DNA from: Pseudomonadota bacterium
Lineage (GTDB): Bacteria; Myxococcota_A; Polyangia; JAAYKL01
Assembly: GCA_023229365.1 (NCBI GenBank)
Contig: JALNZK010000002.1
Location: 318,343 to 340,072 of the forward strand
DNA: 21,730 bases
Direction: 5' to 3'
The notes under the pieces are model-generated. The model had not been told where the DNA came from. It searched no databases and saw nothing but the letters and a program-made list of their open reading frames with translations. Position 1 is the first letter of the stretch; each line of letters starts with the position of its first letter. This document shows, piece after piece, positions 3,102 through 19,240 of this stretch. A program made the position numbers and the translations under genes.

Positions 3102-3635
3102 ATGGAACCAACAAAACGAGAATATCAGGTTATTTTGGGCACTATTATGGGCGGCTCATCAATCATCCGGCCTAAAAAGGGAAAGCATTGTTATTTGTCC
3201 ATGCGAGACAAAAGAGCCAATTGGCTAGAGTTCAAAGCAGATCAATTAGCTCGATACGCCTCGCCAGAGCCTTTTACGATTGAAAAAACAAATCGTTGGC
3301 ACTCTTTGGCATATCCTATTTTCGATGAATTTAGAGAAAAGTTTTATAATCACAAAAAACGTTGTGTCGATATCGAAAGCCTTACTTTCTGGGACGTGGG
3401 ATTGTCTATTTGGTTTGGAGATGTGGGCAAGTTCGAAAATGGACAAGTTATATTAAACACTCACATCTGGGGCGAAAAAGGATCAGAAACCCTGGCAAAA
3501 TATTTCGAATATTGTCAATGGCCTGCTGAAATATTTAAAGACCGCACCTATTACCGTTTACGATTGAACAGAGAGGCTTCTGTGCATTTTATGAATACGG
3601 TTAGCCCTCATTTGCCATTCCCATTGACTCAATAA
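3102..3635 (+). CDS. LAGLIDADG-family homing endonuclease (free-standing; first catalytic motif degenerate)
   Basis: Two LAGLIDADG-like motifs: ILGTIMGGSSI and LSIWFGDVGKF. Family-typical surrounding pattern: CYLSMRDKRANWLEFKADQL, FREKFYNHKKR, ILNTH, YYRLRLNREAS. Confidence 0.75.
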   Translation: MEPTKREYQVILGTIMGGSSIIRPKKGKHCYLSMRDKRANWLEFKADQLARYASPEPFTIEKTNRWHSLAYPIFDEFREKFYNHKKRCVDIESLTFWDVGLSIWFGDVGKFENGQVILNTHIWGEKGSETLAKYFEYCQWPAEIFKDRTYYRLRLNREASVHFMNTVSPHLPFPLTQ

Positions 3636-3671: not shown

Positions 3672-3956
3672 ATGATTAAATTTTTAAAACTAATTACCGG
3701 CGAAGACACATTGGCAGAAGTTACAGAAGAAACCGAATTGCATTATGTTTTAAAGAACCCAATGCGATTTATACCCACCGAACAGGGCATAGGTATAGCC
3801 CCCTTCGCAATGTTTGTGAAAAAGGGCTCTACAATCACAATTGATAAAGATAAGGTTATTTTTGCCGCCGATCCAGAAGATGAAATAGCCAATGTTTATA
3901 ATGAAAAATATGGCTCTGGGATCGTTGTGCCACCCTCAAGCATACAATTACCATGA
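3672..3956 (+). CDS. Hypothetical protein (94 aa)
   Basis: Strong SD (tggaggattacaaATG). The stop overlaps the next start (ATGA). Confidence 0.6.
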   Translation: MIKFLKLITGEDTLAEVTEETELHYVLKNPMRFIPTEQGIGIAPFAMFVKKGSTITIDKDKVIFAADPEDEIANVYNEKYGSGIVVPPSSIQLP

Positions 3957-4543
3957 CAATGCCACATTTAATGAATTGCCCACATTCACCTGATGGGTGG
4001 TGCCTTGATTGCGTCAGTAAACAAGGCAAGCTTTTGCTTGAAATTGACCAAGCCATACAAGACCCGGATAAATTTCTGGCGATGGTTGCTAATCGTGGCC
4101 GACCATTAATCGGCGTTTGCGTTTGCATTTGTCGTCGTGAACCATCCAGCGGCAAAGTTCTTTTGCACAAAAGAAAAGGAAAGCACGCTCCTGGCACATG
4201 GGCATTCCCTGGCGGGCATATGGAAAAATGGGAATCCTTTGAAGGAGTTGTTCGTAGAGAACTAGAAGAAGAAGCAGGGCCAGATATAGAAATTGATAAT
4301 TTGCAATTTTGGACTGTTGCCAATACTCGATTTCATGATGAAGACAAGCATTATGTTGTTCTTTTTATTATGGCTGATTGGGTATCTGGCGAGCCAAAGA
4401 TTATGGAGCCAGAAAAATGTGAATGCTGGGAATGGTTTGATTGGAATGATCTTCCTTCACCACTGATGATGGGGATACAAGATATTGTTGATCGTAAACT
4501 GAGCCCTTTTGACTATGGAGGCGAACACGAAACATTATGCTAG
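3953..4543 (+). CDS. Nudix hydrolase with a Cys-rich N-terminal extension
   Basis: Nudix box GGHMEKWESFEGVVRRELEEEAG (GX5EX7REUXEEXGU). N-terminal CPHSPDGWCLDC cluster. Confidence 0.9.
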   Translation: MTMPHLMNCPHSPDGWCLDCVSKQGKLLLEIDQAIQDPDKFLAMVANRGRPLIGVCVCICRREPSSGKVLLHKRKGKHAPGTWAFPGGHMEKWESFEGVVRRELEEEAGPDIEIDNLQFWTVANTRFHDEDKHYVVLFIMADWVSGEPKIMEPEKCECWEWFDWNDLPSPLMMGIQDIVDRKLSPFDYGGEHETLC

Positions 4544-5109
4544 AAGTAGAAGCTAAATTCATTGTGGATAGTTTTGATTTATTGGAAGCCAAATACCAAT
4601 TTGATGGCCCCGTGTTACAAAGAGATATATATTATCAGCATCCCTCTCGTGATTTTATGAAAACTGGAGAGTGGTTCCGTGTGCGAAGAATTTTTAAGGG
4701 CATTCCCTGTGCGGAAAACCTCGGGTGCGAAGAAATTCATCTGTGTCACAAAGGATCAAATCAAGGCTCATCTGATGTTAAAAGTCGCAGAGAGATAGAA
4801 TTTTCTGTGCCTATGGACATAATTGAACTTTTGCAAATCCTTGATTTTGCAGAATTGATACGAGTGGAAAAATACCGCCGATCAGCCGTGGTTACACCAA
4901 CTAACGATAGTGGCGAACCCACCTTTACCATAACATTAGATGAAGTTTTGGGATTGGGAAAATATGTAGAAATTGAAATGCTGGTTCTCAAAGAAGAATT
5001 TAAAGCAGGAGCAATTGAAGCCATTAATGACATAGCCAAAAAACTGGGACTCACCCAGCCAGAGAAACACGGATATGCTAAATTAATGCTGAAAAAAGAG
5101 AAAAAATGA
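4537..5109 (+). CDS. CYTH-domain protein (triphosphate tunnel metalloenzyme / CyaB-ThTPase family)
   Basis: N-terminal MLEVEAKF carries the ExExK signature. Length and basic/acidic strand pattern fit CYTH. Overlaps its neighbours by 7 nt and 4 nt. Confidence 0.8.
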   Translation: MLEVEAKFIVDSFDLLEAKYQFDGPVLQRDIYYQHPSRDFMKTGEWFRVRRIFKGIPCAENLGCEEIHLCHKGSNQGSSDVKSRREIEFSVPMDIIELLQILDFAELIRVEKYRRSAVVTPTNDSGEPTFTITLDEVLGLGKYVEIEMLVLKEEFKAGAIEAINDIAKKLGLTQPEKHGYAKLMLKKEKK

Positions 5110-7232: not shown

Positions 7233-7877
7233 CTAGTGCATTGCACTAATGTGTAAGTCACGCAGGGTAATGGACCATGATTGATGCCGTGGCGATGATG
7301 CCAAGAAGAAATCAAGGATTTCCTCTGAGGCTGCCGCTACTGTCAACATGATGATGTTACGAGCCAAGGGATAGTCGCAAACGTCGCCACCGCTGTCCTT
7401 TGGCACCTTGTAGCGATCATCCCATACAACCTCGCCATAATCTTCAAATAATCCAGTGTGCAGACATGGAATCTTCTTTGCCCGGCAATGGGTTTGAACA
7501 ATTTGCCGTGCAGCATTATTATCAAAACAATCCAACACCAATGCTGAGCCACGCAGCATTTTATCCACGGTAGCGGCGGTCAATTCCTTGTCCACGGTGT
7601 CAATTTCAACACCAATGTTGCCAAACACCTTCTGTTTGGCGGCGGCAACTTTCAAAGCTCCAACATCCCGCTCATTCCAAAACTGGGTGTTTAGATTATG
7701 AGTATCGACACGATCTTTGTCAATACCACGGAGATTGGCAAATCCTTGTCGAGAAAGATTGTCAAGCAAATTGCTACCCAGGGCTCCTACACCACAAATG
7801 GTGATTAGACCTTGCAATTTCTTGGCATAATCCTTGCCTCGGTAAATTTCTTCATGATGGAATTTATTCGTTGCCAT
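7233..7877 (-). CDS. ThiF/MoeB/E1-like adenylyltransferase (short, 214 aa)
   Basis: Rossmann Gly loop ICGVGALGSNL. GIDKDRVDTHNLNTQ (compare the ThiF/E1 D.D.V..SNL.RQ pattern). LDCFDNNAARQ. Cys in GGDVCDYP. SD ggaggaagaaaATG. Confidence 0.88.
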   Translation of the reverse strand: MATNKFHHEEIYRGKDYAKKLQGLITICGVGALGSNLLDNLSRQGFANLRGIDKDRVDTHNLNTQFWNERDVGALKVAAAKQKVFGNIGVEIDTVDKELTAATVDKMLRGSALVLDCFDNNAARQIVQTHCRAKKIPCLHTGLFEDYGEVVWDDRYKVPKDSGGDVCDYPLARNIIMLTVAAASEEILDFFLASSPRHQSWSITLRDLHISAMH

Positions 7878-8097: not shown

Positions 8098-8661
8098 TCA
8101 CTTGGGTTTGTCTGTTTCAATTTCATTCGCCACCTCTTCGCTCTCTAGGAGAGCACCCAAATTAATTGCAGAGTCTTGATCCCAATCAATGGCATGCCCC
8201 CCAAGCTCAACCTCTTCATCAAATAATGTCAAGTCATCCTCCACAACGACATTAGGTGTTGCCAAGCCATAGCAAGCCAGTGGCTTTTTGGGTGTAATTC
8301 CTACAATTAGTTGCCCAAAGCTCTTTAGAGTACGAATGGGAATTGGAGGTTGTTCATCGCTGTAATACAAATAACCCTTGAGCCCATTGACTCCTTCGAT
8401 CAAACAAACGAGAGGCTTGCCAAACGACAACACCCACTGTGCCATTGTAGCATCATCCCGTGGGCTTGGGGAGGCGATCATTCCGGGGTGCGTGTGATAA
8501 AACCCAACCACATCCCCATATTTTTCTTCACGATCCATGACCCACTTATATGGAAAATCCACGGAGCCAGGGTGCCCTTCGCTTTCGTGCGAAACATGAC
8601 CCCACCACATTCTCCTGTGATTTCCGCCCGTCAAAATCCACGATTGTTCATTTTGTCTCAT
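8098..8661 (-). CDS. JAB/MPN (JAMM) metalloisopeptidase
   Basis: Complete JAMM motif HTHPGMIASPSPRD (HxHx7Sx2D) with upstream acidic residues. The ATG directly abuts the upstream stop (TAAATG). Confidence 0.9.
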   Translation of the reverse strand: MRQNEQSWILTGGNHRRMWWGHVSHESEGHPGSVDFPYKWVMDREEKYGDVVGFYHTHPGMIASPSPRDDATMAQWVLSFGKPLVCLIEGVNGLKGYLYYSDEQPPIPIRTLKSFGQLIVGITPKKPLACYGLATPNVVVEDDLTLFDEEVELGGHAIDWDQDSAINLGALLESEEVANEIETDKPK

Positions 8662-9177
8662 TTATTTTTCCCTTAGTCGTTTTATTGCTTCTTGACGTTG
8701 TTCTCGGGTTTGTTCTTCTAGTTCTTGAGTAAACAATTTCCCGCTCATGTAATATTCTGTACCCCAAGCTGGGCACATTTTGTGTAATTCAGGACGACCA
8801 CAACCAGGGCACACACAATCTTTTGACTCTTCTATGTCCCAGTCCATTGACTCTACAATTTCTTTCACATTCTCTTCGATAAATTTCTCACAAGCCTCTG
8901 GACCAATAGCTTCTCGCAATGCAGCAAACGGATTGCCTGTCGCTGCCCAGCGTGCCTCTTCTTCTTCCCAACACTCGTTTTGTCCACACTCTTTAACCTG
9001 ATCCCACAACAAAGCAACGGATGGGTGTTTGTCTTCTTCCCAATCACCACGTTCCAAAAATGCACAATAGCCGTCTTCTTGTTCAGCGTGGTCGGGGTGC
9101 TTGCTCCAATAAGGGCAAATGCCATTTGTATCATAGCAATATATTCCCTTCGGAATTAAACTCGGGTCTTTATTCAT
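8662..9177 (-). CDS. Cys/Trp/Glu-rich hypothetical protein (171 aa), probable metal-binding
   Basis: Start set at the ATG at 9177 (MNKDPS...), which forms an ATGA overlap with the GIY-YIG stop. Cys clusters: YCYDTNGICPYW...GYCAF and CVCPGCG...MCPAWG. Confidence 0.6.
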   Translation of the reverse strand: MNKDPSLIPKGIYCYDTNGICPYWSKHPDHAEQEDGYCAFLERGDWEEDKHPSVALLWDQVKECGQNECWEEEEARWAATGNPFAALREAIGPEACEKFIEENVKEIVESMDWDIEESKDCVCPGCGRPELHKMCPAWGTEYYMSGKLFTQELEEQTREQRQEAIKRLREK

Positions 9178-9893
9178 AATGTTTTCTTTTCCAACACTTT
9201 CCAATTTTTGTAATGTGCGATTTTGCCAGCAGCTACACTCCACATATGCCCAGAATTCAAATTGTGTTCCCTTGAAAACTGCTCCAAATTACTTGTCTCG
9301 AATACTTCTCCATCTGGCGATGCTATTTTGTATGCGAATTTCAATTTTTTGTTTCGCATTTTTTCTTTTGACTTATCCGAATACTTTCTTCCTGTGGCTG
9401 ATTTGGCAATTTTGTTTTTGTGTTCCTCTGTAAGCGTTTTGCCAGTGTTAAATAGCGATAACTTCTTTTTTGTTTTATTGCTTACTTTGTGTCCTAAATG
9501 ACTCGATCTAAGCTTTTTAATTGTTGCTTGGGTTACTTTTTTCCCTTTGTTGCCGATGGATATTTTGCGTTTAACCTCCTCAGATATTACGCCTCGGGCA
9601 TTTCCAAGTTTTAAATTATAACCATTTGGAGAAAGGGTTTTTAATTCACAGCCCCAATACACTTCCCTGGCATCTATTTCTTCTTGTGTGCCATTTAATT
9701 TTTCTAACACCACAATCTTAAAATGTTCTGGTCCGTATTTTCGAATGGCAAGGACAATCGGCATTAGTTTGGTGTTATTCCACCTTGCCTCCGCACAGTG
9801 TCTTTTGAACCTTTCTTCTGCCGTTTTCCAAGTTTGCCCAACATAGACCTTTGCATTAAGATCATTTATTATTTTGTATATAATTGCTTCCAT
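9174..9893 (-). CDS. GIY-YIG homing endonuclease (I-TevI/Seg-like) with NUMOD3-type repeats
   Basis: IIYKIINDLNAKVYVGQT (GIY...YIG), R/H/E core, NGYN. C-terminal repeated S.GNKGKK / SSHLGHKVS / NTGKTLTEEHKNKI DNA-binding motifs. Confidence 0.9.
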   Translation of the reverse strand: MEAIIYKIINDLNAKVYVGQTWKTAEERFKRHCAEARWNNTKLMPIVLAIRKYGPEHFKIVVLEKLNGTQEEIDAREVYWGCELKTLSPNGYNLKLGNARGVISEEVKRKISIGNKGKKVTQATIKKLRSSHLGHKVSNKTKKKLSLFNTGKTLTEEHKNKIAKSATGRKYSDKSKEKMRNKKLKFAYKIASPDGEVFETSNLEQFSREHNLNSGHMWSVAAGKIAHYKNWKVLEKKTL

Positions 9894-9945: not shown

Positions 9946-10401
9946 TTATAATTTGTCAAATTGGTCTCTGATCTTCATTAGAAGTTTTCCAAGATGGTTT
10001 TCCCCAACTCCGTTGCATACCCCAAAAAACGTGTCGTGCCACCAATTTCCTTCTACTAATTCCGCCTTGCCAGTGGCAAGAAGCTGATTGCATAATTGTG
10101 GATCGGAGAATTTTTGCACAAGCAAATCTTCCATAATCCCTAAATTAATATTTTGCCAATCGGGTCGTTGGTGTCCAGCTTTTTTGAATACAGCCGCAAG
10201 CTTCTTTGCTTTTCCAGGGGTAATAGCGTCTTGAATTTGCTTACGCAATGCCGGGTCTAAAAATTTAGCAGCTTGGTAAGCGTGTTCGGTGGAAATATAT
10301 TTTTCACCATCCAAAACTACCGGCGTGGACAGTATGGCAAAATTCGACAAATACCTGTATTCACCATCAAATGAATCAATTTTTGTTTGCTTGTCATTCA
10401 T
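9946..10401 (-). CDS. NADAR (YbiA/DUF1768) domain protein
   Basis: FDGEYRYLSNF, YISTEHAYQAAKF, GNWWHDTFFG and GENHLGKLLMKIR match the NADAR signature. Confidence 0.88.
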   Translation of the reverse strand: MNDKQTKIDSFDGEYRYLSNFAILSTPVVLDGEKYISTEHAYQAAKFLDPALRKQIQDAITPGKAKKLAAVFKKAGHQRPDWQNINLGIMEDLLVQKFSDPQLCNQLLATGKAELVEGNWWHDTFFGVCNGVGENHLGKLLMKIRDQFDKL

Positions 10402-11277: not shown

Positions 11278-12225
11278 CTAATCGTCGTCGTCGTCGTCGT
11301 AATCGTGCTCTGGCTCGTTGCCACGATTATGGCCGTATTGATTCCAATACCACGTATCACGACCAGAGGTATCTACAATATGGTCACGGCGGTGTCCCTC
11401 TCGGATAACACCTACTAGACTTTGAAGATCAAAGTTACGGTCATAGCCCGACAAACAAATACCAGCAGAAATTACTGATAAAGTTTTTTTGTCAACAACT
11501 GAACGATGAGGGTTTCCATCGATTTGATATTCAATAGTGAAACTGTCTCCACGCTCAATGTGGCTTTTATAATCAGCACCAGCACGCTCTAGGGCAACTT
11601 TGATACGATTGCCTGCCTGTGCCATCTTGGCTTCTTCGCTGGCTTCATAGGCGACCTTATAAGCGATTTGGTATGCATCCAATTCTTGCTTGGAAACAAT
11701 ATCCAAATCCAGCTTCTCTGGCTTGGCCAATGTAGTCAACATTTCTCGCAAATATGCTCCGCTTTTCGGACTTTTGCGAGGGTCTACTTCATCAAACCAA
11801 CAAATCTGTCCATCGAAACGAGCACAAACAGTATCAAACAATTGCACTTCCTCAGACAAATAAATCGGCACGGACCCAGAAATGTTAAATCTGGCATCTG
11901 CCTGAGCAAGGGTTCCATACCACAAATCTTTATTTTGATGGTGCAAAATAAATTTCATAGTAGGAAACAATGCCAAGTATTGTCTTCGCTCCATCATGGA
12001 CGGGGCACGCACATGTTTGGCCAAACGACGGGTGGTAGGCTTGAAAACACCCCAACCCTGAAAATTCACAGGCACTACACGCATTTCCATCACAATGCCA
12101 GAAATACGAACTCTGACCGCTCGCCCCTTGAGCACAGGGGACAAAAACTCTGATTGAAGGAATTGATCTTCCTCAGCGGCGAGCTTATCGATCAGACTGT
12201 GAATATTCGTTTTCTTTTTTTTCAT
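11278..12225 (-). CDS. Hypothetical protein (315 aa) with a C-terminal hexa-Asp tail
   Basis: Start set at the ATG at 12225 (MKKKKTNIHS), directly after the upstream stop (TAACATG). Ends ...EHDYDDDDDD. No motif recognised. Confidence 0.7.
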   Translation of the reverse strand: MKKKKTNIHSLIDKLAAEEDQFLQSEFLSPVLKGRAVRVRISGIVMEMRVVPVNFQGWGVFKPTTRRLAKHVRAPSMMERRQYLALFPTMKFILHHQNKDLWYGTLAQADARFNISGSVPIYLSEEVQLFDTVCARFDGQICWFDEVDPRKSPKSGAYLREMLTTLAKPEKLDLDIVSKQELDAYQIAYKVAYEASEEAKMAQAGNRIKVALERAGADYKSHIERGDSFTIEYQIDGNPHRSVVDKKTLSVISAGICLSGYDRNFDLQSLVGVIREGHRRDHIVDTSGRDTWYWNQYGHNRGNEPEHDYDDDDDD

Positions 12226-12226
12226 G

Positions 12227-12610
12227 TTATTCGATAGCTTCTGTCTGCCCGCTGCCGTTTTTTCCTGCGTCCCAGCCCGCTCCATTGATTTCTTTGGGTG
12301 AATGCAGATGAATTGTCATCGTTAAATAGTAACTTGTGGCAATAGTTCCTTCCATCCACACTTTTTCATTTTCCCTGACATCAAAAACAAATTTTACATT
12401 GTCTGCACACACCGGGTAAGTGTGCATTTTCCCATTAATTAGGAAGGAATATCGGGATGGCTCATGCATCAAAACACGGTCAATGTTTTTTAATTTGCTA
12501 TAATGCGGCTCAGGAGAGCATCCGGCAAGGAGCAAAACAAAAAATAAAAACCATTTCAAATGAATTAACCAGGACATTTTCTGAAATCTCCGTAAGAACA
12601 TTCTCCGCAC
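12227..12610 (-). CDS. Putative lipoprotein
   Basis: Hydrophobic signal followed by the lipobox LLLAGC|S (WFLFFVLLLAGCSPE). The start is ambiguous (12610 or 12577). Confidence 0.7.
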   Translation of the reverse strand: MRRMFLRRFQKMSWLIHLKWFLFFVLLLAGCSPEPHYSKLKNIDRVLMHEPSRYSFLINGKMHTYPVCADNVKFVFDVRENEKVWMEGTIATSYYLTMTIHLHSPKEINGAGWDAGKNGSGQTEAIE

Positions 12611-13122: not shown

Positions 13123-14691
13123 CTACGCAACTTTTCTCTTCGGCAAAGGCCAACTCATGATTTCCATGAGCAAGTCAAGCTTACTGGGCTTGCACAGGAA
13201 TTTCACCAGTCCAGGCAAGCTGTAGTAGTCGCCGGTAAATTGCCAAGCGTCTACTTCGATGCCTTTGACTCGACCTTCTTGCTCCAATTGATCCGTAGCA
13301 TTAGGAGTCTTGACAATGCAAATGTTGGGGAATGCATTCAAGGCTTGACAGTATTTTTGATAAATGTCAAAGAACTTGGGAGCAGTATTTTCCCCTTCAT
13401 CCGTTACCAAAATGATCTGTTCGACCATGTATTTCTTTTGTAGCATAAACTGCAAGCCAACGCCGCAGGAAGTCCAACCGCTTGCACGGATGCCTTCAAA
13501 TGCTTTCTCCCAAGCTGCCAAGTCTTTTCCTTGGCTAGTGATGGGATAGGCGATTGTATCTTGAGCATACGCATACAAAGGAACACCATCCTCCATAACC
13601 GTAGACAATAGGGAGCCAATTCGCTTGCCCAATTCAATGGTAGCGGCTTGAGAACCCGACTTGTCCACAAACAAAGCCGTGGGGCGACTGATACGACCCT
13701 TGGACTTAATTTGTTGGTCAGCAACGGCTTCCAATTGTTGCTTTACTTCATCCGAAACTCCAGGTGCCGCCTTGACGGCTTCCAAGGATTTCAATGCAGC
13801 CATTCGCTTATCGCCCTTGGCCACAACAAGTTTTTCCTCAATCAATTGCTTGAGATCGGGGTTGTCGAACACGCCACGCTTTTTCAAGCTGCCGATGCTG
13901 TTGACCAACTCTTGCGAAGTCATTACTTCCAACAAAGCCGCAATAACAGGCGGTGTCATGGATTCGATTACCGTACTGGCAATCCGGTACGGAATTTTAT
14001 TTTCCACGATCACTCGGGCTTGGTCAGTCGGTGAAGTTGCCTTGGCCAACTCCTTGATTAGGAACGCTTTGGAATCAGCAGGCGGCTTATCATCGAACAA
14101 CACGGCTTGAGCCCGGTCGGTCGGCTTGCGGTGTCCGAAAGCATACAAACTCTTCATATATTTTCGAGCACCAACGCAGACACTATCGAACCAATCTTTA
14201 TCCAATTCTCGCTCTTGCAGATAACGATTGATTTCCGTCATTACGGAATTGGGCAATTGTCGGAACAAGCCCGTTTTGACTTTCTTGGCAGGAGCAGCCG
14301 GTTGTGCCGGTGCGGCAGCAACTCTACGACCCCGAACCATGCGTGCGGGTGCCGGTGCGGCAGCCTTCGGCTTTCGTTCGGTGATATAGTTGCCCAAAAT
14401 GAACTTCAATACCCGTGTCAATTGATAGGGCGGAAGCTCACGCAACATGGCCAAACCAACTTCTCGGTGCCCGTCAAACTTGGACAGACACAAAGAAATA
14501 ATAAACATTTCTTTGTGGTCACGAATTTCGCCGGTATCATTATACCAAGCCGCCAATTGCGAATAGAACCGAGGATCATCGGTAATCATTCGCTGGTGTT
14601 CTGGATAAATAGCGGCCAGATCACGGTGAGGCGTGGTCAATAGAGTGTTGAGAATTCGGAGTCGCACATCTTGTTCGGTATTTTCGTTCAT
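13123..14691 (-). CDS. Ro60/Rsr-like protein: helical-repeat (TROVE-like) N-terminal region plus C-terminal vWA domain (522 aa)
   Basis: C-terminal vWA with MIDAS FVDKSGSQ (DxSxS), ASGWTSCG and ILVTDEGEN, in the same order as human Ro60 VDVSASM / GGTDCS / IVFTDNET (recalled). The N-terminal helical segments RDHKEMFIISLCLS and REVGLAMLRELPPYQLTRVLKFI parallel Ro60 KQEPMLFALAICSQ and [24 protein letters not shown]. Total length is close to Ro60 (~540 aa). Start moved to 14691 (MNENTEQ, SD aaagggatatgaaATG) because the ATG at 14727 lies inside a structured RNA element. Ala/Pro/Arg-rich insert KPKAAAPAPARMVRGRRVAAAPAQPAAPAKK. Confidence 0.65.
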   Translation of the reverse strand: MNENTEQDVRLRILNTLLTTPHRDLAAIYPEHQRMITDDPRFYSQLAAWYNDTGEIRDHKEMFIISLCLSKFDGHREVGLAMLRELPPYQLTRVLKFILGNYITERKPKAAAPAPARMVRGRRVAAAPAQPAAPAKKVKTGLFRQLPNSVMTEINRYLQERELDKDWFDSVCVGARKYMKSLYAFGHRKPTDRAQAVLFDDKPPADSKAFLIKELAKATSPTDQARVIVENKIPYRIASTVIESMTPPVIAALLEVMTSQELVNSIGSLKKRGVFDNPDLKQLIEEKLVVAKGDKRMAALKSLEAVKAAPGVSDEVKQQLEAVADQQIKSKGRISRPTALFVDKSGSQAATIELGKRIGSLLSTVMEDGVPLYAYAQDTIAYPITSQGKDLAAWEKAFEGIRASGWTSCGVGLQFMLQKKYMVEQIILVTDEGENTAPKFFDIYQKYCQALNAFPNICIVKTPNATDQLEQEGRVKGIEVDAWQFTGDYYSLPGLVKFLCKPSKLDLLMEIMSWPLPKRKVA

Positions 14692-14716
14692 TTCATATCC
14701 CTTTCTAAATAAAAAT

Positions 14717-14797
14717 AGCCCATCCAAGTCTGGTCAGCTTTGATTGGAAACGATATGGAAGTTTCTGTTTGTAAGCTGGGCCGGTATGGGATGGGCT
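14717..14797 (-). ncRNA. Y-RNA-like module 0 (minimal: conserved stem motif closed by a ~35-nt insert, no tRNA-like domain)
   Basis: 9-bp terminal stem agcccatcc/ggatgggct. Carries both conserved strands (minus sense 5' ..CCCAUACC..CAGCUUACAAACAG and 3' GCUGACCAGACUUGGAUGGG). Followed on the minus strand by AUUUUUAUUU. Confidence 0.55.
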
Positions 14798-14815: not shown

Positions 14816-15046
14816 TTAGCCGAAAACTGCCTCCGGTCGGAGTGTAAGGGTGTTAGTTTCACCATTACGATCAACAGCAAAAGCCCGTAGCTTCCCTTGA
14901 GGGATGCCTAGCCAATCGGCGGCAGCATTGCGGATATCGGCATCCGAGCTATTGTCGCCAATATTCAGTTCCGCCAAGGGAACGTCGTAAGACCTTCCTT
15001 CGACTCGAACGTGCAGCATGTTTTCAAGTTGGTTTTCGTTGTCCAT
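14816..15046 (-). CDS. Small beta-grasp/ubiquitin-like candidate (76 aa) ending in Gly
   Basis: Strong SD (aaggagaaattacgATG) and its own promoter. Ubiquitin size. Predicted strand-strand-helix-strand pattern (MLHVRVEGRSYDVPL / SDADIRNAAADWLGI / LTLRPEAVFG). The terminal residue is Gly, directly before the stop. Confidence 0.4.
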   Translation of the reverse strand: MDNENQLENMLHVRVEGRSYDVPLAELNIGDNSSDADIRNAAADWLGIPQGKLRAFAVDRNGETNTLTLRPEAVFG

Positions 15047-15089: not shown

Positions 15090-15117
15090 ATTATACTTCA
15101 GAAATTTGAGTTGTAAA
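15090..15117 (-). promoter_or_regulatory. Sigma70-like promoter (TTTACA-N16-TATAAT) for the 76-aa ORF and Ro60-like gene
   Basis: Minus strand: tttaca(15117-15112)-16 nt-tataat(15095-15090), ~45 nt upstream of the ATG at 15046. Confidence 0.6.
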
Positions 15118-15127
15118 CAAGAAAAAA

Positions 15128-15253
15128 TCCGTCCAAGTTACAAAAACTGTTTTTGGTAAACAATGCAGGAATTGAACCAGCATTCTTCAGTTTTCAAGAC
15201 TGACGCTCAACCATTGAGCTAATTGTTTGTAAGTTTTAGTGGTATGGGACGGA
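15128..15253 (-). ncRNA. Y-RNA-like module 1: conserved stem motif flanking a complete tRNA
   Basis: Terminal stem tccgtcc(15128-15134)/ggacgga(15247-15253). The conserved 5' and 3' motif strands bracket the tRNA at 15154-15228. Confidence 0.6.
15154..15228 (-). tRNA. tRNA or tRNA-like, anticodon UGA, class I (short variable arm), CCA encoded
   Basis: Minus sense: AAACAAT-TA-GCTC-AATGGTT-GAGC-G-TCAGT-CTTGAAA-ACTGA-AGAAT-GCTGG-TTCAATT-CCTGC-ATTGTTT-A-CCA. U8, A14, G18G19, U33 and the T-loop TTCAA are present. One T-stem mismatch. A Ser-type anticodon without the long variable arm is anomalous. Confidence 0.55.
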
Positions 15254-15256
15254 AAG

Positions 15257-15385
15257 TGGAGGGTGTTGGATTCGAACCAACATTTTTTCGTTTTCAGTGA
15301 AAAAAGTTACCTTTTGTTTGTATGTCTCTCAGGTGTGGGACAATTGCTTGTCCAAGTTTGGGAAACTGAACGTTTTTAACCCTCC
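15257..15385 (-). ncRNA. tRNA-like RNA (anticodon loop CUGAAAA, GAA/Phe-type) with the conserved stem-loop inserted in the D-loop (module 2)
   Basis: 7-bp acceptor GGAGGGT/ACCCTCC. T arm GTTGG-TTCGAAT-CCAAC. Anticodon arm present. The D region is replaced by ...GTTCAGTT[motif hairpin, loop AGCAAUU]...AAGGTAAC. No CCA. Confidence 0.55.
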
Positions 15386-15395
15386 AAAGTATCAG

Positions 15396-15522
15396 CGGGG
15401 AAGATGGGATTCGAACCCATAATTTTTCCTTAACAGGGAAACTTTTACCAATTGTTTGTATGTCTCTCAGGTGTGGGATGGTCGCCCATCCAAGTTTGGG
15501 AAACTGAACTTCTAACTTCCCC
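15396..15522 (-). ncRNA. tRNA-like RNA (anticodon loop CUGUUAA, GUU/Asn-type) with the conserved stem-loop inserted in the D-loop (module 3)
   Basis: Perfect acceptor GGGGAAG/CTTCCCC. T arm ATGGG-TTCGAAT-CCCAT. Anticodon stem TTTCC/GGAAA. D region ...GTTCAGTT[hairpin closed by GGAUGGG-CGA-CCAUCC]...TTGGTAAAAG. Confidence 0.55.
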
Positions 15523-15612
15523 ATGTGCCCGGTTTATAATTCTCTGCCTGCAACCGGAAACCCGGCAGAAAAGCCTCCAGTTATTGGTTTATCCCAAGAG
15601 GCGAGTAATCAG

Positions 15613-15738
15613 ACCCGGTGGTAGGAGTCGCACCTACAATCTTTTCCTTAGGATGGAAACGCTGTTTGTACGTCTCTCAGGTTTGGGATAATTTCTTATC
15701 CGAGTTTGGGAAACTGTTTGCTGTTTAGCTTCACCGGG
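15613..15738 (-). ncRNA. tRNA-like RNA (anticodon loop AUCCUAA, CCU/Arg-type) with the conserved stem-loop inserted in the D region (module 4)
   Basis: Acceptor CCCGGTG/CACCGGG. Anticodon stem TTTCC/GGAAA. Non-canonical T-loop TGCGACT (G at position 55). 3-bp D-stem GCT/AGC enclosing the motif hairpin (loop GAAA). Confidence 0.5.
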
Positions 15739-15743
15739 ATATT

Positions 15744-15902
15744 CATAAGGCAAACATTTGATCGTCCAAGTCGAAGAAACTGTTTTTTGCAACAATGTTG
15801 GATTCGCACCAACTACCGAAACTTTATGGAAGTTTTGCTCTACTGATGAGCTAATTGTTTGTAAGTTCCGTCAGTATGGGACGATCAAATGTTTGCCTTA
15901 TG
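15744..15902 (-). ncRNA. Y-RNA-like module 5: 24-bp perfect terminal stem plus conserved motif flanking a degenerate tRNA-like domain (CAU loop)
   Basis: cataaggcaaacatttgatcgtcc(15744-15767) is the exact reverse complement of 15879-15902. The inner tRNA-like domain (15789-15860) has a D-loop ATCAGTA lacking GG, anticodon loop UCCAUAA (C33) and T-loop TGCGAAT. Confidence 0.6.
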
Positions 15903-15913
15903 TTGATTTTACC

Positions 15914-16090
15914 GACGCAAGCAAGTGTTGGCCCGTCCAAGTCGAAAAAGCTGTTTCACATAGTGACAGTTTAATAGACTGTTGCCTTTACCATTAGGCT
16001 AAAACACATTTTGGCGTGTTTGTTGGATTCGAACCAACAGATTGTTTGTAAGCTCTGTCTGTGTGGGACGAGCAAACACTTGCCTGCGTC
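15914..16090 (-). ncRNA. Y-RNA-like module 6 with a circularly permuted tRNA-like domain
   Basis: Long imperfect terminal stem 15914-15938/16066-16090. Minus-sense order: motif 5' strand, T arm (GTTGG-TTCGAAT-CCAAC, 16022-16038), loop-capped helix AAACAC/GTGTTT (16002-16021), D-like arm with GG (15984-15999), ACAGT-CTATTAA-ACTGT (15966-15982), motif 3' strand. Confidence 0.6.
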
Positions 16091-16092
16091 AA

Positions 16093-16260
16093 CATCATCA
16101 AGCTTCCGTCTGTCCAAGTTGAAGAAGCTGTTCAACTTTTGACAGTTCCAATTACTGGTGCCTGACCGTTAGGCTACATTCCTTGCGGAATGATGGGAGT
16201 CGAACCCACTTATTTGTTTGTAAGCTCCGTCTGTATGGGACAGACGGAAGCTTGATGATG
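16093..16260 (-). ncRNA. Y-RNA-like module 7 with a circularly permuted tRNA-like domain and a GNRA-capped acceptor-like helix
   Basis: 23-bp perfect terminal stem 16093-16115/16238-16260. T arm 16193-16209. CATTCC-GCAA-GGAATG hairpin 16177-16192. D-like GCCT-AACGGTC-AGGC 16160-16174. CAGT-AATTGGA-ACTG 16143-16157. Confidence 0.6.
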
Positions 16261-16295
16261 TTTACAACTCAAATTGTCAAAGAACACAAAATTGG

Positions 16296-16384
16296 CTATC
16301 CAAGTTCATAGAGGGGAGAACATTCAAATCTCCCCCTTCAAGCGGGGGAGAAAGTCGTTTGTAACCTCTATAGGTTTGGGATAG
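16296..16384 (-). ncRNA. Y-RNA-like module 8: conserved motif enclosing a GC-rich hairpin instead of a tRNA-like domain
   Basis: Terminal stem ctatcc/ggatag. Internal helix AUAGAGG/CCUCUAU. Insert hairpin TCTCCCCC-GCTTGAA-GGGGGAGA. Confidence 0.5.
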
Positions 16385-16475
16385 CAAGGGGAGCCGTTGG
16401 AGTCGAACCAACAAAACCACAAGCCCCGTCTTTCAACACTATACGCTGAATACCGTATTGCGGTTCATTCAGTAT
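16385..16475 (-). ncRNA. 5' leader of the RNA array: stem-loop plus a tRNA T-arm/minihelix-like element
   Basis: Minus sense from the predicted TSS: hairpin CTGAAT-GA-ACCG-CAATA-CGGT-ATTCAG (about 16447-16473). Then GGGG...GTTGG-TTCGACT-CCAAC(16396-16412)...CCCC. Confidence 0.4.
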
Positions 16476-16480
16476 GATCT

Positions 16481-16508
16481 ATTATACGCCTTTTTTATTC
16501 CCTGTCAA
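16481..16508 (-). promoter_or_regulatory. Consensus sigma70 promoter (TTGACA-N16-TATAAT) driving the RNA array
   Basis: Minus strand: ttgaca(16508-16503)-16 nt-tataat(16486-16481). It points into 16475..15128, where no protein-coding potential is apparent. Confidence 0.65.
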
Positions 16509-16796: not shown

Positions 16797-16824
16797 ATTA
16801 TACTTCAGCTTTCTGGTTTGTAAA
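16797..16824 (-). promoter_or_regulatory. Sigma70-like promoter (TTTACA-N16-TATAAT)
   Basis: Minus strand: tttaca(16824-16819)-16 nt-tataat(16802-16797). The predicted TSS falls at or next to the SD of the 79-aa ORF, giving a very short leader. Confidence 0.5.
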
Positions 16825-16891: not shown

Positions 16892-19240
16892 ATGGAAATT
16901 AAAGGTGCATTTAAGGCCGAAACGATTGTTGCTGGCAATATTAATTATTCAGCAGATACTGGGGCTGCCAACGCTTATGTTGTAAGCTTGGGTTTAAATT
17001 ATTTATTTATAGGGCTGCCGGTTTCTTTCAAAGCCTCTCATGATAATACAGGTGCGTCAACTTTAAAAGTTGATAGTCTGCCTGCTGTTGCTATTAAAAA
17101 AAATGTAAGTGATGCCCTGGATATGGGCGATATCAAAACAGGACAAGTCATCACTGTTATTTATGATGGAATATATTTTCAAATAGCAAGTGCCCTTGGC
17201 TCAGGTATTAGCGGATATTCTGGCTACTCTGGAATTGGTATTAGTGGGTATAGCGGATATTCAGGTGACTCAGGCATTAGTGGGTATAGCGGATATTCAG
17301 GTGACTCAGGCATTAGTGGGTATAGCGGATATTCAGGTGACTCAGGCATCAGTGGATACTCAGGATACTCAGGATCAGGCATCAGTGGATATTCAGGATA
17401 CTCAGGATCAGGCATCAGTGGATATTCAGGATACTCAGGATCAGGCATCAGTGGATACTCAGGATACTCTGGAACCACAAATATATATTTGGGAAATCCA
17501 ACGACTGGCGATTACCTAGATGGGTTATTTCCCTGGGAACCCAATGTAACTTTGATTGCTGATGCCGAACAAGAAGTAAATGAAGTATTAGCTGCATTAG
17601 CACCCGCACCAGCACCCAATTTTTCGACATATAACAATGCCCAAACAACAGGAGCAACAGGAAAACTAAGTTTTGATGGATCATATCCCATAGGCGGTGT
17701 ATCGAACGTAGATGGCATTGGCAATTGCACATCTGTCGCTGTCGATGGTGCATTTACTTATAATGCTTTAAGCGGCATGCGAAGAGGTGTTTTTAGTTCC
17801 ACAACAACAAGTTTTACAGGACAATTGGCATCTAATATTGTTGCAGAACCGAATGGAGCATATCTTCAATATGCTTTTATTGACGGTGACACAGGAATTC
17901 TAAGTATATATGTCAATAATGATGTAACACCAAAACATACTGTTGATTTATCAATATTTAGTTCTGGAAGCTCTCTGAATGGCAATGGCACCGGGTTTAC
18001 AAGTATATCAGCAGTAACCTATGAAAAATTTCCTAATGGCAGTGATTTTACATTATTTGTTTATAGGACAGCACAATGGGTGGTCAATACCGCTGATTGC
18101 AGAGAAGGTTGGAATTGGGTGCGTATTACCCATACCGTAGGAACAGATCGCCCGCCCACCAATCTTTATTGCGATTTTATTCGTGACCTAAATACTACGA
18201 CCACGACTTTTTCTGCGGACACGCTTACAGGATTTACTGGCAGTGGATCAAAATATTTGTCGGGAGTAAATTATTATACGGGTGGATCGGCAACTTATGC
18301 CGCAACAATCAGCAATCTTTACAGAAACACATGGTATACAGGATCAGATGCTATTGCTTACAGCTTTAACAGCACCCCTTTACAAGCATTGACAAATGAA
18401 TCTTTGGGCAATTCAGGAGGGGATGAAGCACTAGATGTAACTAAATCAAAAACAGTAAACATTACTTCATCCAGCACCAGACTAAATCCCACTGCTGGAC
18501 ATACCATTAGTGTTAGAACAACTGCAAAAAGGACTGTGCAATCTACTCAATCTTCATCCTATCGATCTATCACAGATATACTTCTTGATAATTTTGTTGC
18601 CTCATCTACCGTTACTGCTGAATATTTTGACGATGAGACTTATAGATTGCCATCAAATTCAGATTTTGACAACGACGCTACAGCCGTCACTAGTTCGTGG
18701 ACATCATCTAATACCATTGCTGATGCTGGTAGTGCTGGATACAACGATGGAACACAAACATATAATGGCACACTTGTGTATCCAACAATGAATTTCTCAA
18801 CCATAGCCAATGGTCCCGCTGGAAACGTTAACTACTCCACAGGTATATCTGGTGAACGTTGCTATTATAGATTTTTTGACATGTTAACCACAGCTAGGAG
18901 CAATTTTACACTTACGGTAAATGGAGCGTCAATAACACCAATATCAAATGGAACGGCTTTTTCTACAACAAGTCAAATAAAAATAGATATTAAGCTACCT
19001 AATGATGGTGGAGAAGGCACTGGTTGGCTAGATGTAACTGCATTGTTCGCAACAGCCCATTGGTCAGACGGTGACGGATGTTTGTTATCAGGAACATTTT
19101 CTATGAATTCTGCCATGTCAATAACTGTTGGCACAAAATCTACGGGAGCCGCAAGTGTTAATGGCAAGGTATTTTTAAGAATTAGAGTTCCTAGTGGATG
19201 GATTAGAAATTTGACTAGTATTACATTGGTTGGAGCATAA
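16892..19240 (+). CDS. Tail fibre protein with an internal (G-x-S/GYS) repeat stalk (782 aa)
   Basis: The N-terminal segment ADTGAANAYVVSL...FKASHDNTGASTLKVDSLPAVAIKK matches the widespread tail-fibre N-terminal pattern (NAY.v.l....F.a...NTGa.TLnv.gl.a..i). A 92-aa SGYSG repeat follows, then a long Ser/Thr/Asn-rich beta-type C-terminal region. Confidence 0.8.
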   Translation: MEIKGAFKAETIVAGNINYSADTGAANAYVVSLGLNYLFIGLPVSFKASHDNTGASTLKVDSLPAVAIKKNVSDALDMGDIKTGQVITVIYDGIYFQIASALGSGISGYSGYSGIGISGYSGYSGDSGISGYSGYSGDSGISGYSGYSGDSGISGYSGYSGSGISGYSGYSGSGISGYSGYSGSGISGYSGYSGTTNIYLGNPTTGDYLDGLFPWEPNVTLIADAEQEVNEVLAALAPAPAPNFSTYNNAQTTGATGKLSFDGSYPIGGVSNVDGIGNCTSVAVDGAFTYNALSGMRRGVFSSTTTSFTGQLASNIVAEPNGAYLQYAFIDGDTGILSIYVNNDVTPKHTVDLSIFSSGSSLNGNGTGFTSISAVTYEKFPNGSDFTLFVYRTAQWVVNTADCREGWNWVRITHTVGTDRPPTNLYCDFIRDLNTTTTTFSADTLTGFTGSGSKYLSGVNYYTGGSATYAATISNLYRNTWYTGSDAIAYSFNSTPLQALTNESLGNSGGDEALDVTKSKTVNITSSSTRLNPTAGHTISVRTTAKRTVQSTQSSSYRSITDILLDNFVASSTVTAEYFDDETYRLPSNSDFDNDATAVTSSWTSSNTIADAGSAGYNDGTQTYNGTLVYPTMNFSTIANGPAGNVNYSTGISGERCYYRFFDMLTTARSNFTLTVNGASITPISNGTAFSTTSQIKIDIKLPNDGGEGTGWLDVTALFATAHWSDGDGCLLSGTFSMNSAMSITVGTKSTGAASVNGKVFLRIRVPSGWIRNLTSITLVGA
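17198..17473 (+). repeat. Coding tandem repeat: 36-nt unit x3 (GISGYSGYSGDS) then 33-nt unit x3-4 (GISGYSGYSGS)
   Basis: Direct reading of 17198-17473. All three forward frames and the reverse frames stay open here, which produces spurious ORFs. Confidence 0.9.

Follow-up and report, generated by a model that had tools for sequence, protein, structure and literature searches.

A tRNA body with a UGA anticodon in a conserved stem upstream of a Ro60-like gene: probably a Y-RNA-like noncoding RNA

Is a tRNA gene that carries a serine anticodon without the long arm of a serine tRNA, and whose flanks pair with each other, a decoding tRNA or part of something else? This question is raised by a 126-nt unit on the minus strand (15128-15253) of a 21,730-nt stretch of contig JALNZK010000002.1, hereafter the window, to which all coordinates refer unless a locus label is given. 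The tRNA and its flanking stem had been noted in a previous reading of the letters (the sequence-only reading), which took the stretch for phage DNA. The unit is the eighth of nine related modules that lie upstream of a gene for a predicted, very divergent homolog of Ro60/Rsr. Our best explanation, to which we give a probability of roughly 0.68, is that the unit is a Y-RNA-like noncoding RNA with a complete tRNA mimic as its effector domain, and not a Ser-decoding tRNA.

A tRNA body in a conserved handle

ARAGORN placed a 75-nt tRNA (anticodon tga) on the minus strand at 15154-15228, and the Rfam tRNA model matched 15157-15228 of the same strand (69.9 bits, E=1.1e-13). These calls bear out the sequence-only reading of a near-canonical, CCA-encoding tRNA; its only correction concerns the strand, which had been left unstated. 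A second tRNA (cat) was found by both methods at 15789-15860, also on the minus strand (46.3 bits), and ARAGORN called no transfer-messenger RNA (tmRNA) in the window. The UGA anticodon, the 5-nt variable loop, and the all-A/U acceptor stem described earlier can all be read off the minus-strand sequence. The acceptor stem is AAACAAU/AUUGUUU, followed by U8 and A9; the D arm is GCUC-AAUGGUU-GAGC; the anticodon arm is UCAGU-CUUGAAA-ACUGA, with UGA in the loop CUUGAAA; the variable loop is AGAAU; the T arm is GCUGG-UUCAAUU-CCUGC; and A73 is followed by an encoded CCA at 15156-15154. The universal tRNA nucleotides (U8, A14, G18G19, U33, R37, T54-psi55-C56, A58) are all present. We observed two deviations, both minor: one U.U in the T stem, and a U at position 21, where A is usual.

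Bacterial seryl-tRNA synthetase (SerRS) identity depends mainly on a long variable arm and G73. The module-8 tRNA has neither the long class II arm nor G73, and instead presents AGAAU, A73 and A2-U71. A class I body of this kind under a UGA anticodon lacks the known bacterial SerRS requirements, so its charging identity is unclear, as the sequence-only reading had also held.

The flanks of the tRNA form a two-part stem. Leader UCCGUCC and trailer GGACGGA (15253-15247 and 15134-15128) base-pair, as was proposed before, to give helix H1; beyond an internal loop, ACUAAAACU (15240-15232) pairs with AGUUUUUGU (15148-15140), with one U.U, to give helix H2. The minimum-free-energy (MFE) fold of 15122-15256 recovered both of these helices and, in addition, the D and anticodon arms (z = -2.8). 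The stem does not hide the ends of the tRNA from processing, which had been the expectation from the letters: an unpaired UAC precedes A1, and ACCA-AAAAC is unpaired after U72.

The stem is one instance of a bipartite motif with nine copies, all on the minus strand between 14717 and 16385. Its M5 half reads GUCCCAyAC, 10 nt, UACAAAC(A), and its M3 half reads 9 nt, (A/G)ACUUGGAy. Each M5/M3 pair forms H1, a sequence-conserved internal loop of ~6 x 5 nt, and H2, which together we call the handle. Nine M5 and nine M3 halves were found between 14722 and 16381, a combination that occurs nowhere else in the window, and the count of nine modules in the sequence-only reading stands. The same is true of its remark that the acceptor 5' strand AAACAAU lies inside the conserved motif, as it belongs to the UACAAAC(A) tail of M5.

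We aligned 54 M5/M3 pairs, taken from 11 related loci besides the window. In this set, whose partners were chosen partly by complementarity and whose register was fixed by sequence anchors, usually with one candidate partner, the 16 base pairs of H1 and H2 were paired in 90.2% of cases, compared with 33-45% when the partner was slid by 1-3 columns. Changes on both sides were seen in 15 of the 16 pairs (221 cells), and none of 500 shuffles reached the observed score. In the internal loop and the UACAAAC tail, conservation extends beyond structure to the letters themselves, and one H2 position is a recurrent non-pair. A control on leader/trailer duplex energy was significant but confounded, because dense tRNA arrays put neighbouring tRNAs in the flanks. 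The handle is a selected structure and no chance pairing.

Four layouts of handle and cargo were observed. In modules 4 and 8, the order is M5, full tRNA, M3, with the AAACAAU tail of M5 serving as the acceptor 5' strand. In modules 2 and 3, M5 is followed by a T arm, a closed acceptor, a D arm, an anticodon-like hairpin, and then M3; in module 3, the acceptor 3' strand runs through G-CCA-AAA into the acceptor 5' strand. Modules 5, 6, and 7 have tRNA-like bodies with a G/C-rich acceptor stem of their own, and the handle (M3, 8-nt loop, M5) is a closed hairpin in the D-loop position. Modules 1 and 9 hold a short hairpin between M5 and M3. Separate folding of each module reproduced handle and cargo (z -1.4 to -5.6). 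The cargos of the family are likewise full tRNAs, permuted tRNA-like domains, and short hairpins, besides the closed hairpins inside D-loops, and a handle that is modular over such varied cargos fits a protein-binding handle, not a tRNA-processing signal. A handle around a 286-nt cargo with no Rfam family match was also seen in one related locus (L009 2429-2740), and handles may carry other RNA kinds too.

The Ro60-like gene and its tie to the RNAs

The next large gene on the strand of the array, the open reading frame (ORF) at 13123-14694, encodes a 523-aa protein. It had no Pfam, PHROG or NCBIfam assignment and no TROVE match; the NCBIfam Rsr model gave 17.8 bits on a homolog, against a cutoff of 900, and the Pfam model vWA_Ro60 was passed by one close homolog only. 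A profile of 29 homologs found, among PDB sequences, only the TROVE protein of phage phiLo (E = 1e-3). The AlphaFold model (predicted local distance difference test, pLDDT, 84.7; predicted template modelling score, pTM, 0.78) shows a HEAT-repeat ring followed by a vWA domain with a MIDAS motif. Its top 13 Foldseek matches, over ~550 columns, were all Ro60, Rsr or phage Ro60 (E 1e-10 to 4e-8), and its full-length structural relatives were solely of these three kinds. Annotation by sequence models thus told little about this protein, and it was fold comparison that resolved it. On the Foldseek, profile, and vWA_Ro60 matches, it is predicted to be a Ro60/Rsr homolog, and a very divergent one.

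The genomic mark that defines Y RNAs in bacteria and phages is structured RNAs with tRNA-like domains, placed just upstream of Ro60 and on its strand (PMC4201824, PMC12135203); the criterion of Chen et al. 2014 (PMC4201824) is a distance of about 4 kb or less from the Ro60 orthologue, on the same strand. Module 8 lies well inside this range: it ends 434 nt before the start codon of the Ro60-like gene, on the same strand, and the whole array lies within 1.7 kb. The arrangement is a recurrent one. All 11 close viral loci, whose proteins are 48-75% identical, have handle arrays no more than ~3.5 kb upstream of the gene; the closest contig, P0001 (95% identity), lies outside this set. Distant loci (27-30% identity) have the same design with a diverged handle, the 3' strand of which contains CGAA in two of them (L029, L031); CGAA is the hallmark of canonical Rsr-binding sites (PMC4201824, PMC12135203). 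From the RNA side, a scan of the viral collection with a 14-base handle pattern returned 93 stretches, mostly chance matches, which were filtered by structure. A structurally valid handle was retained in 8 viral loci, 7 of them on contigs that encode the Ro60-like protein, compared with 4/89 for the chance-like matches. The association of handle and gene is reciprocal, as it was found from the protein side and from the RNA side.

Among known systems, the YrlA Y RNAs (RF02553; PMC4201824; 10.1101/312249) come closest in organisation. Like them, the handle RNAs lie a few kb upstream of a Ro60-fold gene and co-directional with it, often several per locus. In both, the 5' and 3' ends form a stem with a conserved motif, which in YrlA binds protein, and the other end is tRNA-like with authentic T and D arms. 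In the handle RNAs the terminal stem and its internal loop are backed by covariation, and the tRNA-like domain goes as far as a full cloverleaf. The YrlA order of T arm, closed acceptor, and D arm is matched by modules 2 and 3. Canonical YrlA differs in that it has a closed acceptor, no anticodon loop, and the Rsr-binding stem at the anticodon-stem position (10.1101/312249), whereas in module 8 the cloverleaf is full and includes an anticodon loop, the CCA is templated, and the handle sits at the acceptor end; other modules have the handle in the variable-loop or D-loop position. The arrays also reach 9-11 modules per locus, and their partner protein is far outside the recognised TROVE family. 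A Ro motif of the GNCGAAN0-1G / GGUCCGA type was not found; the handle reads GUCCCAyAC / AACUUGGAC, and CGAA appears only in the two distant loci mentioned above. No match to the Rfam models YrlA (RF02553) or Y_RNA exceeded the gathering score in the window and 14 related loci; the best was a partial YrlA match in module 2 alone (16160-16209, 27.7 bits against a gathering score of 69). The best reading of the handle RNAs is that they are Y-RNA-like, of YrlA type in organisation, and differ in the handle motif and the full-cloverleaf cargo.

Three further comparisons are informative. In the YrlA of Mycobacterium smegmatis, the tRNA-like domain has a 7-bp acceptor stem and is cleaved by RNase P; its end carries CCA, and Rsr retains both halves (PMC4201824). 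Module 3 has G-CCA-AAA in front of its acceptor 5' strand and seems made for such processing; in M. smegmatis, however, the CCA is added after cleavage of the closed loop, while in module 8 it is templated and runs into the handle, and the tRNA is unpermuted. Thermus phage phiLo also has a Ro60-fold protein with Y-like RNAs, Yrl1 and Yrl2, directly upstream (PMC12135203), and its Ro60 is the closest solved sequence relative of the window protein by profile. It differs in having two RNAs with a CGAA bulge, no reported tRNA cargo or linkage to genes of the ubiquitin-like (Ubl), E1, and JAB kinds discussed below, and a protein that is recognisable as TROVE (PMC12135203). Lastly, tmRNA and viral 3' tRNA-like structures also embed a tRNA mimic, with stacked acceptor and T arm and a CCA end, in a larger RNA, but they have a free, chargeable 3' end and no normal anticodon arm, whereas module 8 has all four arms and an internal 3' end.

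Decoding, display or processing

Whether the cargo decodes can be judged from what is conserved in it. In an alignment of 18 handle-held full tRNAs, the cloverleaf was 89% paired, with 16 of 21 pairs compensated (D stem 100%, anticodon stem 94%). G10, G19, C25, C56, A58, and C61 were invariant, as was a purine at position 37, and U33 was present in 15/18. Meanwhile, anticodon positions 35 and 36 had entropies of 1.92 and 1.91 bits, and G was never observed at position 34. We gauged tRNA identity by nearest-neighbour comparison of the tRNA bodies. Those nearest to the module-8 tRNA (75-81% identity) carry UAG, ACG, UCU, CCA, AAG, and AUU, several of them on the exact anticodon stem UCAGU/ACUGA, and the same body has a 6-nt anticodon loop in one viral relative (L059, 75% protein identity) and in Zavarzinella formosa. 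The anticodon is not conserved among orthologues: the cargo is selected for tRNA shape, and the anticodon is not. Given that the anticodon varies on one body among relatives, which amino acid reads UCA is probably the wrong question.

The same pattern appears when the tRNA calls that lie upstream of the Ro60-like gene at a distance of 1.5 kb or less (n=42) are compared with all others in the same loci (n=241). We counted as a decoding anomaly a Leu or Ser anticodon on a body of <=79 nt, A34 except in ACG, a stop anticodon, or an abnormal loop. Such anomalies made up 21/42 of the Ro60-proximal calls and 10/241 of the others (Fisher p = 4e-13). G34 was found in 1/38 of the proximal calls and 73/241 elsewhere (p = 1e-4). 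A34 is enriched near the gene (11/38 compared with 7/241), and UGA, CAU, ACG, and UGU recur among the proximal calls; there may be a bias in the triplet, and not neutrality alone. In the ordinary arrays of distant relatives (L053, L035, L055), at a distance from the Ro60-like gene, we also observed several Leu-anticodon tRNAs of 76-78 nt.

The 3' end adds a further line of evidence. A templated CCA was found in 10/18 handle tRNAs and in 1/26 ordinary tRNA genes of the close family (p = 1.5e-4), and the NCCA-AAAC junction is conserved. This enrichment speaks for a 3' end that is normally left attached to the handle strand, where enzymatic addition would be impossible and a mature-looking CCA must be encoded.

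An alternative is that the cargo is a genuine decoding tRNA, excised by RNase P and 3' processing, charged, and reading UCN, where it would supplement serine tRNAs or recode UCA, with the handle stabilising the tRNA or timing its maturation. The high Rfam score, the universal positions, and a cloverleaf under selection would suit this, as would the encoded CCA and the unpaired nucleotides that flank the acceptor stem. Codon use can be quoted for both sides. The sequence-only reading had asked for UCA frequency in the full phage genome; in the window, where the check was run, serine is most often encoded by UCA (16.3 per 1000), and UGA does recur in some relatives. All three stop codons are used in the window genes. 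However, a mischarged reader of the phage's most-used Ser codon would harm its own proteins, and a normal class II tRNA-Ser(UGA) is found in the ordinary arrays of related phages (L010). Besides the missing variable arm, A73, and A2-U71, one acceptor stem is common to handle tRNAs with >12 anticodons, so that acceptor-based identities cannot all be met. Close relatives have UCU, ACG, AUU, AAG or a 6-nt loop in place of UGA, and half of the Ro60-proximal calls are undecodable by normal rules. We regard a decoding tRNA as unlikely.

Under the Y-RNA-like reading, the array would be transcribed as one or a few precursors, which would then be cut into modules. In module 8, the 5' and 3' ends pair through H1, the CAUACC/AACUU internal loop, and H2 with its one fixed non-pair, leaving an unpaired UAC, and the divergent Ro60-like ring would dock on this handle as on those of the other modules. 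The acceptor stem would be built from the handle's own AAACAAU tail, with the templated ACCA running on into AAAAC, so the tRNA would be tethered rather than released. Module 8 would display a look-alike of an uncharged tRNA with an internal CCA. RNase P might cut at UAC^A, for which M. smegmatis YrlA offers a precedent, in which case both pieces would stay together through the handle; the unit would end at the U6 tract right after it. At least four U (>=4) follow H1 immediately in 20/35 split-type modules of the family. The UGA triplet would not be a decoding specification, and would drift or diversify freely on a conserved body. The tRNA-shaped cargo would show its shape to some tRNA-binding partner, as is thought for canonical bacterial YrlA, and may recruit or sequester that partner. 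What the data show is the tRNA, the handle with its covariation, the array and its promoter, the Ro60 fold of the protein next to it, the reciprocal genomic association, and the variable anticodon. We infer the binding of the Ro60-like ring to the handle, the tethered state of the tRNA, and the identity of the partner.

Several points weigh against this account. The 523-aa protein fails the Pfam TROVE and NCBIfam Rsr models, so its Ro60-like function is extrapolated from the fold alone. The handle matches Rfam Y_RNA/YrlA nowhere, and the canonical GNCGAAN0-1G motif is absent in the clade. Module 8 has all the features for RNase P cleavage together with an encoded CCA, and release of a free tRNA is possible. 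The handle could bind the 335-aa protein or the small ubiquitin-like protein encoded nearby instead of the Ro60-like ring. Finally, UGA recurs in handle tRNAs of the window and of related loci (L003, L041, and, in the D-loop type, L006), which hints that the triplet is perhaps not entirely neutral.

As a refinement of the Y-RNA-like reading, the cargos might serve as decoys or baits and lure enzymes that act on tRNAs (anticodon nucleases, PIN/VapC toxins, and defence factors that modify tRNA are examples), with the Ro60-like protein holding or disposing of the complexes and the variable anticodon loops tracking enzyme specificities. A hypervariable triplet on a conserved U33/R37 loop scaffold would be expected of such baits; the non-random position 34 and the recurrent triplets also fit, as does the presence of the system in huge phages as well as cells. 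Moreover, Rsr/YrlA in bacteria is co-regulated with the tRNA-damage response (PMC7790460). These arguments are purely circumstantial, though. In many Planctomycetota the system sits on the chromosome, and there an anti-defence role is harder to see, the 6-nt loops would be poor mimics, and no nuclease or toxin was linked in the loci examined. We consider the decoy idea a doubtful one.

Leader/trailer stems with internal loops around rRNAs and some phage RNAs are RNase III sites. The handle might similarly be a processing or stability element, for example a double-strand RNase site around the units of a polycistronic tRNA operon, with the proximity of the Ro60-like gene incidental; the modules are, after all, transcribed as an array from one promoter. 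What counts against it is that the internal loop and the UACAAAC tail keep their sequence and not just their structure, and that the handle also takes the form of a closed hairpin within tRNA-like bodies and, elsewhere, encloses tiny non-tRNA hairpins. Ordinary tRNA arrays on the same contigs have no handle, and handle presence tracks the Ro60-like gene in viral and cellular genomes. We therefore think this very improbable. That the handle is a small self-cleaving or self-ligating ribozyme or a bulge-helix-bulge splicing motif, which makes mature tRNAs from permuted or split pieces, can practically be dismissed: the permuted arm order of some modules, the bipartite motif, and the conserved internal loop might suggest it, but no ribozyme family matched even at E <= 10, the permuted order with closed acceptor is the known YrlA layout (10.1101/312249), full, unpermuted tRNAs have the same handle, and no splicing endonuclease or ligase is linked.

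Three candidates were rejected outright. A hairpin-type or other small ribozyme found no family match at that threshold, and the layout equals the YrlA architecture. Permuted or split tRNA genes joined by splicing would not account for a handle that flanks intact tRNAs and tiny hairpins alike. A CRISPR-like array was set aside on the irregular spacing and the bipartite, self-complementary motif.

The array, its neighbours and their spread

Features of the window are collected in Table 1.

Table 1. Features of the handle array and of linked genes in the window, listed in the direction of the minus strand
Feature	Position	Strand	Basis and remarks
Array promoter TTGACA-16-TATAAT	16481..16508	-	12/12 sigma-70 consensus; ~95 nt upstream of module 1
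Module 1: handle with short G/C-rich hairpin	16295..16385	-	M5/M3 pair; fold H1 + loop + H2, z = -5.6
Module 2: permuted tRNA-like cargo (T arm, GCAA-closed acceptor, D arm, anticodon-like hairpin)	16106..16247	-	Fold z = -4.7
Module 3: permuted layout as module 2	15932..16072	-	Sequence; fold z = -3.5; sub-threshold tRNA match, 27.0 bits
Module 4: 17-bp H1, full tRNA CAU (15789-15860), no encoded CCA	15751..15895	-	ARAGORN; Rfam 46.3 bits; fold
Module 5: tRNA-like body, handle as closed hairpin in D-loop position	15613..15738	-	M3-loop-M5 order, d = -22; sub-threshold tRNA match
Module 6: module-5 layout, acceptor GGGGAAG/CUUCCCC	15396..15522	-	Handle pairing; centroid structure
Module 7: module-5 layout, acceptor GGAGGGU/ACCCUCC	15257..15385	-	MFE: acceptor, handle hairpin, anticodon-like hairpin, T arm
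Module 8: H1 5' strand UCCGUCC	15247..15253	-	Pairs with 15128-15134; covariation
Module 8: internal-loop 5' side CAUACC	15241-15246	-	Alignment, pair counts, fold
Module 8: H2 5' strand ACUAAAACU	15232-15240	-	Alignment, pair counts, fold
Module 8: unpaired UAC ahead of tRNA	15229-15231	-	
Module 8 cargo: complete class I tRNA, UGA, A73, encoded CCA	15154..15228	-	ARAGORN, Rfam, cloverleaf covariation
Module 8: spacer AAAAC	15149-15153	-	Handle pairing, covariation, fold
Module 8: H2 3' strand AGUUUUUGU	15140-15148	-	Handle pairing, covariation, fold
Module 8: loop AACUU	15135-15139	-	Handle pairing, covariation, fold
Module 8: H1 3' strand GGACGGA	15128-15134	-	Handle pairing, covariation, fold
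U6 tract directly 3' of module-8 handle	15122..15127	-	Sequence; likely 3' end/terminator of array transcript
Second promoter TTTACA-16-TATAAT	15090..15117	-	11/12 match; for small ORF, module 9, Ro60-like gene
Protein of 76 aa, probably ubiquitin-like	14816..15046	-	Inside array; 13 viral + 45 genome loci
Module 9: handle with short hairpin, then U-rich tail	14717..14797	-	M5/M3 pair; fold z = -5.1
Predicted divergent Ro60/Rsr homolog: HEAT-repeat ring + vWA with DKSGS MIDAS motif	13123..14694	-	
Conserved protein of ~335 aa, invariant GICLSG cysteine	11278..12285	-	14 viral, 46/80 genome loci
Prok-JAB (JAMM) peptidase, intact HTHPG...S..D	8098..8661	-	Pfam 34.4 bits, cutoff 25; 9 viral + 24 genome loci
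ThiF/E1-like adenylating enzyme	7233..7877	-	Pfam ThiF 94.9 bits; 10 viral, 38/80 genome loci

Module 8 is the last of eight modules in the first transcription unit, and module 7 abuts it via CUUU; module 9 lies just upstream of the start codon of the Ro60-like gene. Module 5 has the acceptor CCCGGUG/CACCGGG, an anticodon-like loop AUCCUAA, and a T arm. Between the consensus promoter and module 1, we observed a truncated tRNA-like unit (16386-16480, minus strand) that abuts the first handle. It consists of a 5' hairpin and a T-arm minihelix, GGGGC...GUUGGUUCGACUCCAAC...GCUCCCC, at 16386-16440, with the T arm at 16396-16413. Between modules 5 and 6 there is a structured spacer of ~90 nt (15523-15612, minus strand) with no handle, tRNA features or Rfam match. 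Near-identical promoter-like blocks, GTTTACAA...GAAGTATAAT, occur at 15090-15117 and 16797-16824 on the minus strand, which suggests a phage-specific extended promoter motif.

The genes that accompany the Ro60-like gene are also shared across loci, in phages as well as in genomes of Planctomycetota and Chloroflexota. The 76-aa protein has an invariant C-terminal ...PEAVFG, ending in FG, and its AlphaFold2 model (pLDDT 78.5) has a beta-beta-alpha-alpha-beta-beta, beta-grasp-like fold; its matches to ubiquitin-like structures were weak and not significant (E >= 0.1), and on the model it is probably ubiquitin-like. The 335-aa protein had no Pfam relative and none among PDB sequences, where only a spurious repeat match was returned. 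A ThiF-family E1 and a JAMM peptidase with intact motifs, as in prokaryotic Ubl-E1-JAB systems, are both among the neighbouring genes. In the window, these genes are split by insertions that include homing endonucleases; they are contiguous in cellular genomes. The insertions and other genes nearby include LAGLIDADG and GIY-YIG homing endonucleases, a NADAR protein, and adjacent NUDIX/CYTH genes (3102-3635 and 3953-5109 on the plus strand, 9174-9893 and 9946-10401 on the minus strand).

The Ro60-like family comprises at least 1282 matching proteins, with at least 569 stretches in cellular genomes at 47-57% identity. The cellular hosts are mostly Planctomycetota, among them multi-Mb contigs and the isolates Zavarzinella formosa DSM 19928 and Gemmata sp., with some Chloroflexota. 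Counts of cellular loci refer to 80 loci among these stretches. A strict handle was found in 48/80 of them, which is the only figure used from a census that picked distant partners and misclassified cargo sizes. The cellular gene order is tight and co-directional: the 335-aa gene comes directly behind the Ro60-like gene, and then ThiF, which always follows the 335-aa gene in genome loci. In Z. formosa (L213, 2000-2700), the gene is preceded by three modules, the first of which nearly repeats the window tRNA body; its cargo scores 52.5 bits as a tRNA in Rfam. No 335-aa or ThiF gene lies within 3 kb of the Z. formosa Ro60-like gene. As this genome has the RNAs and the Ro60-like gene alone, the pair of RNA and Ro60-like gene is the core of the system. 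The same handle RNAs were seen upstream of the Ro60-like gene in Gemmata sp. (L201, 2450-2900).

Sulfur relays of the Ubl-E1(-JAB) type thiolate tRNA, as in Urm1/Uba4, TtuB/TtuC, and SAMP2/UbaA. They offer a lead in that the present system likewise combines a small, probably beta-grasp protein ending in Gly, a ThiF E1, and a JAB peptidase, here linked genetically to tRNA-shaped RNAs. The present system differs, as no PP-loop thiolase was detected, the probable Ubl ends in FG and not GG, and no precedent was found for linkage to a Ro60-fold protein. One might speculate that the cargos are substrates or cofactors of a hitherto unrecognised machine made of the Ro60-like ring, the Ubl, the ThiF/E1, the JAB, and the cysteine-bearing 335-aa protein. 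The E1-activated Ubl C-terminus could, for example, thiolate or otherwise modify the tethered mimic, or even be esterified to its CCA end, and the hypervariable anticodon loop would be a specificity or decoy code. We hold this to be a long shot; if true, it would link Ro60/Y-RNA biology to ubiquitin-like chemistry in bacteria and giant phages, and the linkage is a concrete biochemical lead.

In the literature searched, neither this RNA family nor its arrays nor a linkage to Ubl, E1, and JAB genes was found described. Conservation of Y RNAs and Ro60 reaches from bacteria to humans. In the handle RNAs, tRNA mimicry goes as far as an entire cloverleaf with CCA. Arrays of up to ~10 RNAs, with the handle on three positions of the tRNA body and the anticodon left free, are a natural series that shows which tRNA surfaces must stay exposed. 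As the family goes unrecognised by sequence models, Ro60-type ribonucleoproteins would be far more widespread than annotated, especially in Planctomycetota and huge phages. There is also a practical consequence for annotation. In the output of tRNA finders, these cargos turn up as Ser or Leu tRNAs that lack long arms, as suppressor-like tta/tca tRNAs, or as A34 forms; such calls in huge-phage genomes can mislead inference of codon reassignment, and a check for the handle should come first.

Finally, beyond the second promoter-like block, the plus strand has an ORF of 782 aa (16892-19240) with tandem 33/36-nt repeats at 17201-17477, a Gly-Tyr-Ser-rich collagen-like tract, and a weak match to tail proteins; its product is probably a tail fibre.

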